Shown: piece after piece, positions 1 to 5,416 of the stretch | How positions within the stretch are numbered: position 1 is the stretch's first letter | Layout of the letters: every line of letters starts with the position of its first letter | Assembly: GCA_039028615.1 (NCBI GenBank) | Contig: JBCCHT010000012.1 | Location: 128,001 to 192,000 of the forward strand | Direction: 5' to 3' | Origin: Myxococcota bacterium | GTDB lineage: Bacteria; Myxococcota_A; Polyangia; Nannocystales; Nannocystaceae | Length of the DNA stretch: 64,000 nucleotides | Made by a program: the position numbers and the translations under genes | Notes under the pieces: generated by a model | Seen by the model: only the letters and a program-made list of their open reading frames with translations | What the model was told of the DNA's origin: nothing | The model's database searches: none

Positions 1-235
1 CATCGGCCGCGCGTTGACCGGCTTGGGTGCCTTCGCCTGAGCCTCGACCCCTTCGTCCCACCGTCCATGGGGTGATCCAACCCCAGGACGGGTCCCGGGT
101 TTATTGTCTTGCGCACTATACGCGCAGCGCCTAAACCCCCTTCAATCGCCCCCCTGGCCAGCCCGCGTGGCTCACAGCGTACCGCGCGGCTGTATCTCGC
201 TACCCGCACGAGAATCCGTTACGCTGCCGATCCCG

Positions 236-754
236 GTGGTGCATCCCGTTCAGAGCGTCATCGAGTCGTTGCAGGCAGCCAGCCGCTGCCCTCGGCTCCA
301 CGTCAACGCCATGTTCGATGGCGTAGTTTGCCCTGATTTCATCCGCGATCAGTGGCGTGAGCGGCTCATCATCGACCTCGATCCGAGCTATCCGCTGGAC
401 CTGACCTTCCTCGATGAAGTGCTGTCCGCGGACCTGTCGTTCGGTGGCTACGTGACCCGCTGTACCTTCCCGTACGGGGCCATTTACGTGGTCGCCGATC
501 GAAGCACGGGGCGCGGCATCGTGCTCGATCAGAACATGCCCGAGTCGGTGAAGCGCAGTCGCTACGGCAAGGGCGACGAAGCCCAGCGACCCACGCTGCG
601 CACGGTGGGCGGCTCGGACGATCCTTCGGGACCCGCCTCCGAGCCCGACGCCACCCGCAGCACGGACGAGCCGGCCACGGACATCGAGGCGACGGACGAC
701 AGCCAGGTCAAAAAGCGCCGCGCGGCCTTCAAGGTCATCGACGGCGGCGGCTGA
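236..754 (+). CDS. SspB-like (stringent starvation protein B / ClpXP specificity factor) protein
   Basis: Core 'LHVNAMFDGVVCPDFIR...LIIDL...DLTFLDEVLSADLSFGGYVTRCTFPYGAIY' resembles the SspB fold, followed by an acidic disordered linker and a C-terminal 'RAAFKVIDGGG' resembling a ClpX-binding tail. Start chosen at GTG 236; the ORF track starts at 104. Confidence 0.7.
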   Translation: MVHPVQSVIESLQAASRCPRLHVNAMFDGVVCPDFIRDQWRERLIIDLDPSYPLDLTFLDEVLSADLSFGGYVTRCTFPYGAIYVVADRSTGRGIVLDQNMPESVKRSRYGKGDEAQRPTLRTVGGSDDPSGPASEPDATRSTDEPATDIEATDDSQVKKRRAAFKVIDGGG

Positions 755-771
755 TCCGAGAGGTCGAGACG

Positions 772-1089
772 ATGAAGCCGGGCGTGCTTCCGAAGATCCT
801 GTCCGCCAGCGTGTTCGGACTGACCTTGGCGCTGTTTTCGGTGTGGTGGTTCATGATCCGCGCACCGGGCCCGGCCGAGGTCTGCGAGCACATCCTGCAG
901 GTCACCCTGCGCGAGGCGTCGGGCCAGGGCCTCAGCCCCGAGAGCCAACAGAAGCTGGTCGAGTCCACGCGCACGCAGTGCATCGAGCACAAGCAGGACA
1001 AGATCCAGCTGCGCGGGCGCATCAAGTACGCCACCTACGCCAAGTGCGTGATGGCGGCCCAAGACTTGCTGACCATCGGCCGCTGCTAA
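772..1089 (+). CDS. Small membrane-anchored protein with four Cys
   Basis: N-terminal hydrophobic helix (ILSASVFGLTLALFSVWWFMI) and Cys pattern VCEHI...QCIE...KCVMAA...GRC; strong GC3 bias; GAGAGG upstream. Confidence 0.8.
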   Translation: MKPGVLPKILSASVFGLTLALFSVWWFMIRAPGPAEVCEHILQVTLREASGQGLSPESQQKLVESTRTQCIEHKQDKIQLRGRIKYATYAKCVMAAQDLLTIGRC

Positions 1090-1095
1090 GCTGTC

Positions 1096-1488
1096 GTGGT
1101 GCTCGAGCTGCGGGTCCACGAGAAGGTAGAGCCCACGACCGAGGCGCGGCTTTCGGGCGTGGTCGCCCATCAACATACGCTGCGCGACGTCGTGGCCTGG
1201 ATGGCGGCGGCCGGGGGCACCCCGTCCATCGTGACGATCATCGAGCAGGACGAGTTCACCAGCGATGTCGTCGTCCGCGAGTCCGACGGCGTGTTCCTGG
1301 TCTACGACTGCACCTGACTGGGCGCGGTGACGGCGGTCGCCGTCTGGGCCCACGCTCCCAACGCCGACGAGCTGCTCGACGCGCGCATCAGCGCGGGATG
1401 GCGGCCCGTGCCCACCGCGACCGTCAACGGGCCCGTGATCATGGGCCACGCCGCCACCCGTTGTACGCCGCAGCTCGGCTGCCGCTAG
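1096..1488 (+). CDS. Candidate selenoprotein (~130 aa, in-frame TGA at 1315-1317, C-T-U motif); otherwise a 73-aa protein ending at 1317
   Basis: The frame stays open after the TGA (LGAVTAVAVWAHAPNADELLDARISAGWRPVPTATVNGPVIMGHAATRCTPQLGCR, TAG at 1486-1488) with unchanged G/C third-position bias, and a SECIS-like hairpin follows the TGA. Confidence 0.65.
1315..1352 (+). promoter_or_regulatory. Putative bacterial SECIS element
   Basis: TGA, 11-nt spacer (CTGGGCGCGGT), then GACGGC-GGTC-GCCGTC (perfect 6-bp stem, GGUC loop, 1329-1344). A lower stem pairs TGGGC (1319-1323) with GCCCA (1348-1352). Confidence 0.6.
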
Positions 1489-2364: not shown

Positions 2365-2859
2365 CTAGGGAGGCCCGGCTTCGGTGGTGAGCTCGATGCG
2401 GGTGGCCTCGAAGCGCGAGCCGTCGCGATCGAAGCGCGGCTGCCCCTCGAGGCGGTAGCGAGCGTCGAGGTCGAGCGCCTGGGCTCCGCACGGCGACGGC
2501 GGCGGCACCTCGCCATCGCTCGGCTCGGTGCAGCGGGCGGGCACCTCGATGCCCAGAGGACGAAGCACGACCGTCATCGAGCGCTCATCCTCCGCGTCGA
2601 CGAGCAGCCACGGCCCGGGGCCTTCGGCCTCGTAGCGCAGGCGGGCGAACAACACGATCGTCTCCCCGTTCCAGCGCGCGGGATGGCCGGCCATGTCGTT
2701 GACCCCCAGCGTGGCCGGGGCGGCGGGCGGGACATCGGGAGGCCGGGCGGAGTCCTCGGGTGATGGCTCGACCCGCGTCGGCGTGGGCTCGGGCCCGGCC
2801 GCGCGTGGGCCGGCGCACCCGAACGCCAGCATGCTCGTGGCCAGCGCGATCCGCTTCAT
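2365..2859 (-). CDS. Hypothetical lipoprotein
   Basis: MKRIALATSMLAFGC lipobox; ATG overlaps the upstream stop (ATGA at 2856-2859). Confidence 0.75.
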   Translation of the reverse strand: MKRIALATSMLAFGCAGPRAAGPEPTPTRVEPSPEDSARPPDVPPAAPATLGVNDMAGHPARWNGETIVLFARLRYEAEGPGPWLLVDAEDERSMTVVLRPLGIEVPARCTEPSDGEVPPPSPCGAQALDLDARYRLEGQPRFDRDGSRFEATRIELTTEAGPP

Positions 2860-3824
2860 GGATCGAGCTGCTTCATGCTCACCGACAGACCCATCTGCGT
2901 CTCGGCTTTCTGATGCTGCCCGAGCACCGTCAGGTCCATGACCATCGACATGTCCATCGTCATCGTCATCTCGACGGGCGCGGCCGCGCTCAGGTCGATG
3001 GTGCTCGACCCCTGGCCCGAGGCCCGAAACTCGCTCGCCCGCGCGGTGGACTCGGTCATGCCGGGCGCCTGCACGTTGGGATCGAGCAGCTCCTGCTGAA
3101 CCTGGACGTCGAACATCAGGCGGTCGCCGTCCCGCGACAGCAGGTGGTAGCGGCTCGTCTGGCGCAGCTTCATCCCGCTCTGCTTGATGTCCTCCACCGT
3201 CGTCCACTTCGCGCCCGGCCCCACCGCGGGCTCGGGCAGCGGCACCGACATCTGACCCAGGCTCTGGGTCATCTGCTGCATCATCGTGTGCACGTTGGCG
3301 GGCAGGTCGCGGGGAAGCTCGGCCTCTCCTCCCAGCACCGTGCCCCGGTCGTTCATCTCGATGCGCCCGCGATACTTCATCAGGGGCATCACCGTCTTCT
3401 CCACGTTCTCGACCACCGCAGGGGGGCTGTCTTCGGCCGCGGTGACGATGACGCCCCCGACCGATTGCTCGACGTGAAAGCCCGCGTCGCCCACTTCGGT
3501 GACCTTGCTCTCGAGCGAGACCGCGATCGTCGGGACCGGCAGCTCCACGGACTCTTCGGCCGCCTTCTTCATGGTCATGGTCGTGCCCATGGTGAGCTTC
3601 AGGACCTGGCTTCCCCCCGCCTTCGGGTGCAGCCGCAGCACCGCCCGGGGCTCCGCCCCCGCATCCTCGACCTTCACGGCCGGCGCCTTGCGAGCGGGGA
3701 TGGCGATGGTCTCGACCCCCTTCGCCGCCGTCGCGGCGCCCTCGGCCGCGTCTTCGTTCTTCTTTCCGCACCCGAGGCCGAGTCCGACCACGGCCAGCAT
3801 CATGACGAGAGCCCGCTTGTGCAT
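2856..3824 (-). CDS. Lipoprotein, DUF6263-like
   Basis: MHKRALVMMLAVVGLGLGC lipobox; 'DAGAEPRAVLRL' and 'VPLPEPAVGPGAKWT' motifs typical of this beta-rich family. Confidence 0.75.
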   Translation of the reverse strand: MHKRALVMMLAVVGLGLGCGKKNEDAAEGAATAAKGVETIAIPARKAPAVKVEDAGAEPRAVLRLHPKAGGSQVLKLTMGTTMTMKKAAEESVELPVPTIAVSLESKVTEVGDAGFHVEQSVGGVIVTAAEDSPPAVVENVEKTVMPLMKYRGRIEMNDRGTVLGGEAELPRDLPANVHTMMQQMTQSLGQMSVPLPEPAVGPGAKWTTVEDIKQSGMKLRQTSRYHLLSRDGDRLMFDVQVQQELLDPNVQAPGMTESTARASEFRASGQGSSTIDLSAAAPVEMTMTMDMSMVMDLTVLGQHQKAETQMGLSVSMKQLDP

Positions 3825-3925
3825 GGAGGCTGGACGGTAGCAGGCCCCGTTCCTCCTTCCCCAGCGAAAACCCGAGCGCTCTCGCCCTGGTCTCGTGATC
3901 CACACCTCGCTCCCAATCCACGCCG

Positions 3926-5416
3926 ATGATGATGAGCACGCAATCCTCGCCCCGGTGGGTCGTCACGCTCGCCGCCACGCTGCTGGCCACGGCCCTGCCC
4001 TCCACGAGCGCCGAGGCCTGTCCCTGGGCCTATCCCATCGGCGACTCGGCCGTCAGCCCGGCGCCGCTGTTCAACGGGCACCCGGTCGGCGGCGGCAACC
4101 TCCCCAACTTGGGCGTGCACCTGGGCGCCGACTACTGGAGCGGAGGCGGCTGCACCGACCTCGGGCAGACGGTCTACGCGGTGGCCGACGGGGAGATCGT
4201 GGAGATCGTCGACGGCCTGGGCAGCTACCTCGACGTCGTCGTCATCCGCCACGAAGACGCCTCCGCGGGCACCGTGTACTCGATGTACGGCCACATCTCG
4301 CGCGAGGCCGGCCTGGCGGAGGGACAGCTGGTCGACTACCGCCAGCCCATCGGGTTCATCGACGACGTCCTGGCCTACTTCAGCCCCTGCCACCTGCACT
4401 TCGAGATCCTCAACGAGCAGGCCTACCAGCAGGGGCCCTTTTGCAATGGCTGCGCGGCGGCGGGCTTTCACGTGTCCCCCGGCTACGACCAGCAGGCGGG
4501 CGTCGTGGCGGGCATGGACCCCAGCGGCGACACCTGGCTCGACGTCGACGACGGCATCGCGGACAACCGCTGGTACCACACCGACGCGTTCATCGACGCC
4601 CGCCTCGATGCTACCTGCGGGGAGTGTGGAGACGGGATCTGCGAGGGCAACGAGACCTACGACGAGTGCCCCGCCGATTGCCCTCCCTGTGCCCTGATCC
4701 CTCCCGAAGGCGGCACGCTCGACGAGACGGGCGCGTGCTTCTTCGCGGGCGGGGACCCGACCTACTGGAACGTCGACAACGACACGGGCTTCGAAAGCAG
4801 CCTGCGGTGGACCCACACCACCGACTCCACGATCGTCGACAACTACGGGATCTGGAGCTTGGCCTTCGCCGAAGCGGGGCAGTATCGGCTCGAAGCCTGG
4901 ATCGAGCCGGGCTCCGCCGACACCGAGCTAGCGAGCTACCAGGTGCGGCACGCGGGCGCGATGGACACCGTGGTGGTCGACCAATCCGCGGGGGATGGCT
5001 GGGTCACGCTGGCCGAGTACGAGTTCGCGGCCGAGGGTGACCAGTGGATCCGGCTCGACGACAACACGGGCGAGGCCTTCTCCACGATGACGCGCATCGT
5101 GTTCGATGGCATTCGGCTGACGCGGCTCGATCCGACGCCGGGCGGCAGCGAGTCCGGCGAGCCCCCGCCTGCGACCACCTCGAGCGGCTCGGGTGCGGAC
5201 GAGAGCGGTGCCCCGGCGACGACGGATGACGCGACGGACGAGGGTGGCTCCAATGCCACGGACACCGGCTCCCCGGGCGGAGGAGGCCCGGCCCTACCGG
5301 GTGCGCGCGAGTCCGAGGACTTTGGCTGTACCTGCCACGAAAACCGGAGCGCCCCGCCGTGGTGGGCGTTGCTGCTGCTCCCCGCGTTCCGTCGGCGCCG
5401 CTCCAAGAGGGCCTGA
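3926..5416 (+). CDS. Secreted M23-family peptidase with golvesin/xanthan-lyase-like C-terminal domain and MYXO-CTERM tail
   Basis: Signal peptide; M23 Zn ligands HLGAD and HLHFE, plus YAVADGEIV and YSMYGHI; beta-sandwich 'GQYRLEAWI...ASYQVRH...VDQSAGDGWVTL...FDGIRL'; tail GCTC...WWALLLLPAFRRRR. Confidence 0.85.
   Translation: MMMSTQSSPRWVVTLAATLLATALPSTSAEACPWAYPIGDSAVSPAPLFNGHPVGGGNLPNLGVHLGADYWSGGGCTDLGQTVYAVADGEIVEIVDGLGSYLDVVVIRHEDASAGTVYSMYGHISREAGLAEGQLVDYRQPIGFIDDVLAYFSPCHLHFEILNEQAYQQGPFCNGCAAAGFHVSPGYDQQAGVVAGMDPSGDTWLDVDDGIADNRWYHTDAFIDARLDATCGECGDGICEGNETYDECPADCPPCALIPPEGGTLDETGACFFAGGDPTYWNVDNDTGFESSLRWTHTTDSTIVDNYGIWSLAFAEAGQYRLEAWIEPGSADTELASYQVRHAGAMDTVVVDQSAGDGWVTLAEYEFAAEGDQWIRLDDNTGEAFSTMTRIVFDGIRLTRLDPTPGGSESGEPPPATTSSGSGADESGAPATTDDATDEGGSNATDTGSPGGGGPALPGARESEDFGCTCHENRSAPPWWALLLLPAFRRRRSKRA

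Follow-up and report, generated by a model that had tools for sequence, protein, structure and literature searches.

Introduction

In Escherichia coli, the UGA codon of fdhF is followed directly by a stem-loop lying within the coding region, and SelB binds G23 and U24 of its GGUC loop. Most catalogued bacterial selenoproteins come from anaerobic sources, have thioredoxin-like folds and have many homologues with cysteine (Cys), the usual replacement for selenocysteine (Sec). Here we describe a gene with the same arrangement, UGA and then a coding-region stem-loop, in a 64,000-nucleotide stretch (the window) of the genome of a Myxococcota bacterium of the family Nannocystaceae (assembly GCA_039028615.1, contig JBCCHT010000012.1, positions 128,001–192,000, forward strand). 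Judged from sequence comparison, positions 1096–1488 of the window very probably constitute one gene for a 130-residue selenoprotein, in which UGA 1315–1317 would be decoded as Sec. A first-pass annotation made from the sequence alone had proposed a selenoprotein of about 130 residues here, and the proposal is supported by conservation of the TGA, covariation in the hairpin, homologues with Cys and the presence of the Sec machinery.

The consensus model of the bacterial selenocysteine insertion sequence (bSECIS), as given in the legend to Figure 2 of a May 2026 review (PMC13188914), has a loop of 3–9 nt, an upper stem of 4–16 bp, a G at loop position 1–2 followed by G or U, a distance of 16–37 nt from UGA to loop, and a minimum free energy (MFE) of –7.5 kcal/mol or lower. 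Table 1 of the same review gives a domain identifier for each of 119 prokaryotic selenoprotein families or subfamilies. Among these, GOS_B (NF041374), GOS_C (NF045500) and the hypothetical DG, DW and DF families are likewise small; they were defined computationally, by Sec/Cys pairs, flank conservation and a bSECIS, and contain no known domain (PMC13188914). In the available text of the deep-Sep study, nine new families are reported, none of them from Myxococcota, Gemmatimonadota, Planctomycetota or Acidobacteriota (PMC12013277). BSepDB, according to its main text, sought known families only, and its genome list includes Myxococcota (PMC13326102).

Results and Discussion

Conservation of the TGA and of the protein on both sides

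The frame opens with GTG at 1096 on the forward strand and runs for 130 codons to a TAG stop at 1486–1488, with TGA 1315–1317 as codon 74. Up to this TGA it is a 73-amino-acid open reading frame (ORF) ending in VFLVYDCT, after which it stays open for another 56 codons. The extent of the gene (1096–1488) is supported by full-length alignment of homologues; an alternative GTG at 1099 is the start used in the public gene call, P0002, a fragment of 72 amino acids. The expectation of the first-pass annotation that standard annotation would truncate the gene is borne out by this call. All of the sequence features that it described were found at their coordinates, the in-frame TGA by direct reading and the hairpin also by folding of 42 nt. 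An 11-nt spacer (1318–1328), gap-free in all 47 aligned homologues, separates the TGA from a hairpin (1329–1344) in which the arms GACGGC (1329–1334) and GCCGTC (1339–1344) form a 6-bp stem, GACGGC/GCCGUC in RNA, closed by the apical tetraloop GGUC (1335–1338).

Homologues were picked by protein similarity, in a six-frame search of whole genomes with the read-through protein. Matches were obtained in eight of 41 related genomes, extending approximately over residues 10–123, and every one of the eight contained exactly one in-frame TGA. When the 73 genomes of the order were searched with a profile built from these eight (A1), 29 gave a match; 28 matches were strong (138–193 bits), all with an in-frame TGA, and the 29th was weak and lacked a stop. 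The TGA occupied the same column in all 30 sequences extracted (28 from the order and two from other families of the class), within the context L-V-[YF]-D-x-[TS]-TGA-L-G. Even sampling of the phylum (401 genomes) yielded 27 matches. An in-frame TGA was present in 21, five were weak and lacked a stop, and the last was a C-terminal fragment lying at the edge of its contig. Besides the window's own, 20 of these TGA-bearing rows were fetched and 17 parsed (L201, L206 and L207 were left out), and six of the 17 have U-N-A instead of U-L-G, defining a subfamily. The homologues are conserved on both sides of the TGA, a check that the first-pass annotation had put forward.

A further sample was drawn from soil metagenomes by an upstream peptide pattern, [VI][VA]QDE[FV][TS][HQY]D, which involves neither the codon nor the hairpin. 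Among the best 80 of 278 relatives, the codon was TGA in 77 and TGC in three. Downstream of the TGA the protein remains strongly conserved (W84, 96%; P88, 100%; L94, 97%; R97, 99%; W102, 100%; G117, 100%), and the first two residues past it, L-G or N-A in the subfamily, are kept in frame. Altogether, over 120 independent loci, representing four phyla or more, retain the same TGA. If it were seen in one genome only, an in-frame stop would usually be taken as the nonsense mutation of a pseudogene. Because the comparative data keep both the TGA and the protein encoded after it across these loci, that explanation is already refuted, and we consider its probability negligible. The comparisons establish that the UGA is under selection as a sense codon and that it is interchangeable with Cys.

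At one locus of TGC type, L229, the hairpin is intact (GGUU loop, 6/6 pairs) and the protein differs very little from those of neighbouring Sec forms; it is either a very recent Sec-to-Cys change or else a sequencing error.

The hairpin downstream of the TGA

RNAalifold, run on the first 30 sequences, returned only the 6-bp stem with its GGUC loop, and the same stem and tetraloop were obtained with alignment A4, which comprises 47 protein-selected genome sequences of Sec forms. In A4, 96.7% of cells form standard pairs, compared with 25–77% when the partners are slid by 1–3 columns, and in five of the six pairs both partners have changed (G-C/C-G, 22:17; A-U/G-C, 37:6; C-G/U-A, 35:7; G-C/C-G, 40:5; G-C/A-U, 45:1). 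The covariation score was 0.407, compared with 0.161 in shuffles, and none of 500 shuffles attained the observed score, so that the hairpin covariation that the first-pass annotation had asked about is present. Compensating changes are often synonymous, as when ACG..GCC becomes ACC..GCG or ACA..GCT, or when C-G replaces G-C at the third positions of the flanking codons. The GGUC loop is invariant in the 47 genome homologues.

The first-pass annotation had placed this hairpin on a lower stem. The 42-nt fold does reproduce a two-tier structure (–22.2 kcal/mol) in which UGGGC (1319–1323) pairs with GCCCA (1348–1352). The 6-bp stem is conserved, but the lower stem is absent from the consensus structures of both 30 and 47 sequences, can be formed in this genome only, and was rejected as part of the element.

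Among the 77 metagenome Sec forms, the loop is AGUU in 61, GGUC in 15 and GGUU in one, indicating a common core xGUx. All six stem pairs are formed in 48 of them, five in 27, four in one and two in one; seven carry a compensated ACAGC/GCUGU stem. Among the genome homologues, L204 combines a wholly different stem (AGCAC/GUGCU) and peptide with an identical loop. Across the soil metagenome loci (L209–L287), the switch between AGUU and GGUC leaves the encoded residues unchanged (GCG GTC to GCA GTT), and it suggests lineage-specific preferences of SelB.

The peptide encoded by the hairpin, T-A-V-A-V, is kept in Sec forms and varies freely in forms with Cys or Trp, where A-I-A-I, E-A-V-A-A, T-G-V-V-A, Y-G-A-S-A and others are found. 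This difference shows that it is the RNA, not the protein, that constrains the peptide. The family is in this respect a clear natural example of a bSECIS that dictates its own peptide.

The element agrees with all four constraints of the bSECIS model, with a loop of 4 nt (GGUC) that has G at position 1–2 followed by G/U, a 6-bp stem, a distance of 17 nt between UGA and loop, and an MFE of –13.6 to –22.2 kcal/mol (model as in the Figure 2 legend, PMC13188914).

Replacements of Sec and split public gene calls

A protein-level homologue search returned only two N-terminal fragments of 72 amino acids. At E ≤0.001, the profile hit 860 entries in a set of 1.84 billion representative proteins, and the counts that follow come from the 150 listed. 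Ninety-eight of these matches stop at profile position 72–73, 26 start at positions 75–83 and 25 span the column of the Sec codon. Such clustering of ends and starts around the Sec column is the pattern expected if gene callers cut Sec genes in two. At the Sec column, the 25 spanning proteins have Cys (12), Trp (four), Ser (three) or Arg, Pro or Gly (one each); the remaining three align poorly there. Cys at the TGA column had been among the checks proposed beforehand, and it is found in these 12 proteins and in the three TGC loci of the metagenome sample. The Cys forms are single uninterrupted proteins, equal in length to the read-through product. A pattern search with the Cys-read alignment in one-genome-per-species contigs gave three matches, none of them related, which rules out only the exact Cys-codon pattern there. 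One listed match, P0014 (1645 amino acids, 17 repeats), was discarded as a repetitive false positive. The ten homologue clusters whose names were looked up are all 'hypothetical protein' or unnamed.

A sister family of about 140 amino acids is recognised by the motif Q-Q-G-E-F-H-H-D ... V-V-A-T-N-C-N-G-G-V-K-E (L055:1459-1878 (+) and L179–L183). It shares with the present family the N-terminal module, to just past the Sec column (hhalign probability 93.8% over 53 columns), and has Cys at that column in all six members, with no Sec. The sister family lacks the hairpin peptide and has its own Cys-rich C-terminal half (W-R-C-P, D-P-C); no Pfam family was found for it.

These data bear on the simplest alternative, that the TGA is an ordinary stop which ends a 73-residue product, the sequence beyond it belonging either to a small gene of its own or to an RNA element (an attenuator or a stability hairpin, for instance). 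Public gene callers annotate the locus in this way (P0002, P0003), and the present genome has a GTG at 1327 with which a 53-amino-acid ORF could begin. That GTG is not conserved, however, homologues having CTC, GTC, ATC or CTG in its place, while the L-G or N-A that immediately follows the TGA is conserved in frame. The uninterrupted Cys forms of the same length also speak against a stop, as do the AlphaFold prediction of a single domain (predicted local distance difference test, pLDDT, 94.4) with strands 3 and 4 flanking residue 74, and the use of G/C-ending codons, which remains at 93% in frame after the TGA. By direct count, such codons number 67/73 upstream of the TGA and 52/56 downstream of it in frame, compared with 40/55 and 35/55 in the other two frames. 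We therefore regard an ordinary stop as highly unlikely. On the preferred reading, a selenoprotein read through the UGA, the family offers a further instance of the systematic mis-annotation of selenoprotein genes, its members standing in public sets as fragments of 72 and 50 amino acids, and it is a new target for annotation pipelines.

Selenocysteine machinery and a second UGA-containing gene in the host

The host genome (G000; 12.3 Mb in 94 contigs) was found to contain selA, selB, selC and selD, all four genes whose presence the first-pass annotation had wanted checked: SelA scored 315 bits, SelB 308 bits including its C-terminal part, SelD 385 bits and the tRNA-Sec 68.6 bits, the last being called tRNA-SeC (tca) by ARAGORN. 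In the order, SelA is encoded by 59 of 73 genomes and by 25 of the 28 carriers of the family. The three carriers without SelA (G064, G068 and G077) each have a tRNA-Sec (70–75 bits), and selD itself contains an in-frame TGA (Sec-type SelD) in two of them (G064:C237:1250-2179 and G077:C35:52381-53346). Five carriers tested from other groups all had both SelA and tRNA-Sec. The host selD (G000:C12:10471-11406) has no internal stop and lies inside an open frame of 627 codons, which may be a fusion or merely an open frame in G+C-rich DNA.

Elsewhere in this genome (contig C36, locus L184, position 1951), a gene for an FdhA-type molybdopterin oxidoreductase has an in-frame TGA in the context CSRA-U-HAPTV; UHxP is a catalogued selenoprotein context (Table 1 of PMC13188914). 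The TGA is followed by an 11-nt spacer and a 7-bp stem with a GGUCU loop. This is a second selenoprotein gene of the genome, outside the window, and it serves as an internal positive control, its spacer and GGUC(U) loop matching those of the gene described here. The two elements differ in that only 6 bp are conserved in the present one, and the two proteins are unrelated: the 130-residue protein has neither the UHxP motif nor the molybdopterin domain of formate dehydrogenase.

In other systems, a hairpin that lies beyond a stop codon can stimulate its read-through. The UGA might accordingly be read through without selenium, either by hairpin-stimulated near-cognate decoding as Trp, Cys or Arg or by some other recoding, and four full-length public homologues with Trp at the column and one with Arg could be taken in its favour. 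Three of the four Trp forms, however, lack the T-A-V-A-V peptide, and because of this loss they look like true TGG substitutions and not like evidence of how UGA is decoded. Among the residues that replace Sec, Cys is the commonest (12 of the 25 spanning proteins, three of the 80 metagenome loci and all six members of the sister family), every carrier genome tested shows Sec machinery, and the hairpin not only matches the host FdhA Sec codon in spacer and loop but also satisfies the four bSECIS constraints of the Figure 2 legend in PMC13188914. Read-through without selenium is given only a slim chance.

Proposed decoding and the evidence against it

We propose that SelB carrying Sec-tRNA(Sec) would insert Sec at residue 74, as the comparative evidence suggests, and that the coding-region bSECIS, with its 11-nt spacer, 6-bp stem and GGUC tetraloop, would recruit it. 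Outcomes that the first-pass annotation had named as contrary to a selenoprotein, namely homologues all ending at the TGA, TGG or CGA at this position in close relatives, or a host lacking selA, selB or selC, were not seen.

Several observations nevertheless weigh against Sec decoding. The window is 68% G+C, and 178 of its 403 TGA-ending frames of at least 60 codons remain open for at least 56 codons more. The region folds no better than shuffled sequence (z = 0.28 for 1300–1375, –1.36 for 1315–1356 and –1.17 for 1315–1350). Two of 124 Sec-form hairpins (L193:315-362 (-) and L271) break two of the consensus stem pairs and, with the peptide ...S-V-S..., would need a shifted hairpin of 3–5 bp. 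Some homologues have Trp (four), Ser (three), Arg, Pro or Gly at the Sec column, from which it follows that the Sec residue is not indispensable in every lineage. Finally, the evidence for Sec insertion is comparative throughout.

Hairpin stability in the single sequence was dropped as evidence because it does not exceed that of shuffles. The exact geometry (11-nt spacer, 6-bp stem and 4-nt loop with G at position 1 or 2) follows four of the 1206 TGA triplets of the window, and the other three look like chance. The single-sequence signals are within chance, and it is the comparative data that carry the case.

As to the two divergent hairpins, L193 and L271 could form one shifted by two nucleotides with a UCU triloop.

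Predicted structure and possible function

Alignment A3 (97 sequences) was the input both for AlphaFold and for residue counts. D52, D57, P88, W102 and G117 are conserved in 100% of its sequences, and Q51 (95%), E53 (97%), G76, W84, L94, R97, G101, P104, G112 and A119 in at least 95%. In the window, codons 1246–1266 encode Q51-D52-E53-F-T-S-D57, the local version of the family motif Q-D-E-[YF]-T-H-D. AlphaFold predicts one confident, compact α+β domain for the read-through sequence (pLDDT as above; predicted template modelling score 0.88), in the order strand, two helices, four antiparallel strands, helix, small hairpin and short helix. Residue 74 is located in the predicted turn between strands 67–73 and 77–84, and the meander topology, judged from the order of the elements, suggests that this turn adjoins the β1–β2 turn carrying Q-D-E...D.

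The first-pass annotation had described a CxU motif and two further C-terminal Cys. A Cys two residues before Sec occurs in only three of 47 homologues (L031, L048 and L188), so CxU does not hold as a family motif. One of the C-terminal Cys is widely conserved: 70 of the 77 Sec forms in A3, and all 77 metagenome Sec forms, have a Cys within ten residues after G117 (G-[HY]-A-A-C). In this genome it is shifted by two residues (G-H-A-A-T-R-C), its local equivalent being Cys123 (codon 1462–1464). The second C-terminal Cys is not widely conserved.

A Foldseek search against the Protein Data Bank gave no match at E ≤0.001. With VIA-align, the best score among 48,161 chains was Z 6.1 for OsmE (4dm5_A), and seven chains of RelE/HigB/GraT type scored Z 3.5–5.0, below the noise level of the tool, for which a best Z of 7–8 is typical in the absence of relatives. 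In the ESM Atlas no feature score exceeded 0.76, the value for the Cys homologue P0004. The RelE/HigB- and OsmE/BamE-type folds have a similar order of elements (strand, two helices, antiparallel sheet, helix), but the present protein has no sequence similarity to them and no conserved antitoxin-like neighbour. Thioredoxin-like chains are absent from the listed Foldseek and VIA-align rows, although such an absence cannot exclude a fold, and a CxxU or UxxC motif is not conserved in the homologue alignments.

One possible function, to which we give somewhat less than an even chance, is a redox role in which Sec74, placed at the β-hairpin tip, would act as nucleophile, resolved by the C-terminal Cys and cycling through a selenenylsulfide with this Cys of the G-[HY]-A-A-C tail. 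In its favour is the presence of this Cys in the Sec forms counted above. Against such a mechanism stand the lack of a CxxU/UxxC motif and of a thioredoxin-like chain among the listed structural matches, the lack of a redox partner gene conserved nearby in 76 loci, the absence of the C-terminal Cys from seven of 77 Sec forms and its retention in six of eight forms with neither Sec nor Cys. The invariant acidic residues and the His near Sec could equally form a metal or substrate site. More doubtfully, the protein may be the first representative of a protein class that depends almost obligately on selenium and has its own fold and a new kind of selenium active site, in which Sec, at the β-hairpin tip, would lie beside a cluster of invariant Asp/Glu residues, usually with a His; the class would be common among aerobic bacteria of soils, in four phyla or more, and the site would be catalytic or would bind a metal or metalloid, unlike thioredoxin-type CxxU chemistry. 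If this were true, the Sec:Cys ratio of approximately 25:1 would mean that sulfur cannot substitute here. The family provides a compact protein of 130 residues for the study of why Sec is preferred over Cys.

Novelty and distribution of the family

No family was found for the read-through protein in Pfam-A or NCBIfam release 20 at E ≤1, and Pfam gave no credible hit for 16 homologues with Cys, Ser or Trp. Table 1 of PMC13188914, with its 119 entries, does not include the family; a few of the entries, defined by CDD or PANTHER only, were not scanned directly. These results, and the lack of a clear structural match, agree with the first-pass annotation, which had seen no likeness to known selenoprotein families. 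With families of the GOS_B/GOS_C type there is no sequence relationship at E ≤1 (NCBIfam release 20 models), and the present family differs from them in being dominated by Sec (77/80) and in lacking a CxxU/UxxC-type motif. Myxococc*, Polyangi* and Nannocyst* are unmentioned in the available text of deep-Sep (PMC12013277) and in the main text of BSepDB (PMC13326102). Our literature searches found no selenoprotein work on myxobacteria and, among the papers listed, nothing relevant for selenoproteins or SECIS elements in the four phyla and only an unrelated letter string for the family peptide motifs. We rate this as a new, previously unnamed selenoprotein family, the type of gene itself being well known. 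Its members belong mainly to lineages with large genomes from soil and freshwater, with Sec in approximately 96% of sampled members and no recognisable fold relative, and it points to selenium use in soil bacteria.

A DNA pattern combining the TGA with the hairpin core occurs in at least 120 stretches of one-genome-per-species contigs. Eighty of these loci were fetched, of which 75 encode family members and five are chance matches; since they were chosen on the hairpin, they were not used as evidence for it. By label, the 75 comprise 27 Myxococcota or 'delta proteobacteria', 21 Gemmatimonadota, 15 Planctomycetota, five Acidobacteriota and seven with other or doubtful labels. Occurrence is patchy, with the family in two of six genomes of the window's genus and 29 of 73 of the order.

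Family members were also seen on contigs of metagenome-assembled genomes (MAGs) labelled Klebsiella pneumoniae, Enterobacterales and Streptosporangiaceae (L105, L066 and L121). These contigs are probably mis-binned, because their sequences resemble those of the Myxococcota or Planctomycetota groups. In a Planctomycetota MAG (L060:41-868 (-)), the family domain continues without a stop into a DMP19-like domain (PF14300, 91 bits), a single apparent fusion.

Genomic context

The surroundings of 76 loci were compared, over as much as 5 kb to either side. Leaving aside the gene itself and its shadow frames, each ORF cluster recurred in six loci at most; without conserved neighbours, the context gives no clue to function. 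In the window, the gene is preceded on the same strand by an SspB-like ORF at 104–754 (+) (Pfam SspB, 34 bits) and by an ORF of 105 amino acids at 772–1089 (+), which has a hydrophobic N-terminus, belongs to no family and ends in a TAA 6 nt before the selenoprotein start. Both were considered as conserved partners and rejected, as neither recurs beside the gene in other loci. Further downstream, the window encodes a 348-amino-acid protein at 2856–3905 (-), with a match to DUF6263 below threshold, and a 496-amino-acid protein at 3926–5416 (+), with Peptidase_M23 and Golvesin C-terminal domains.

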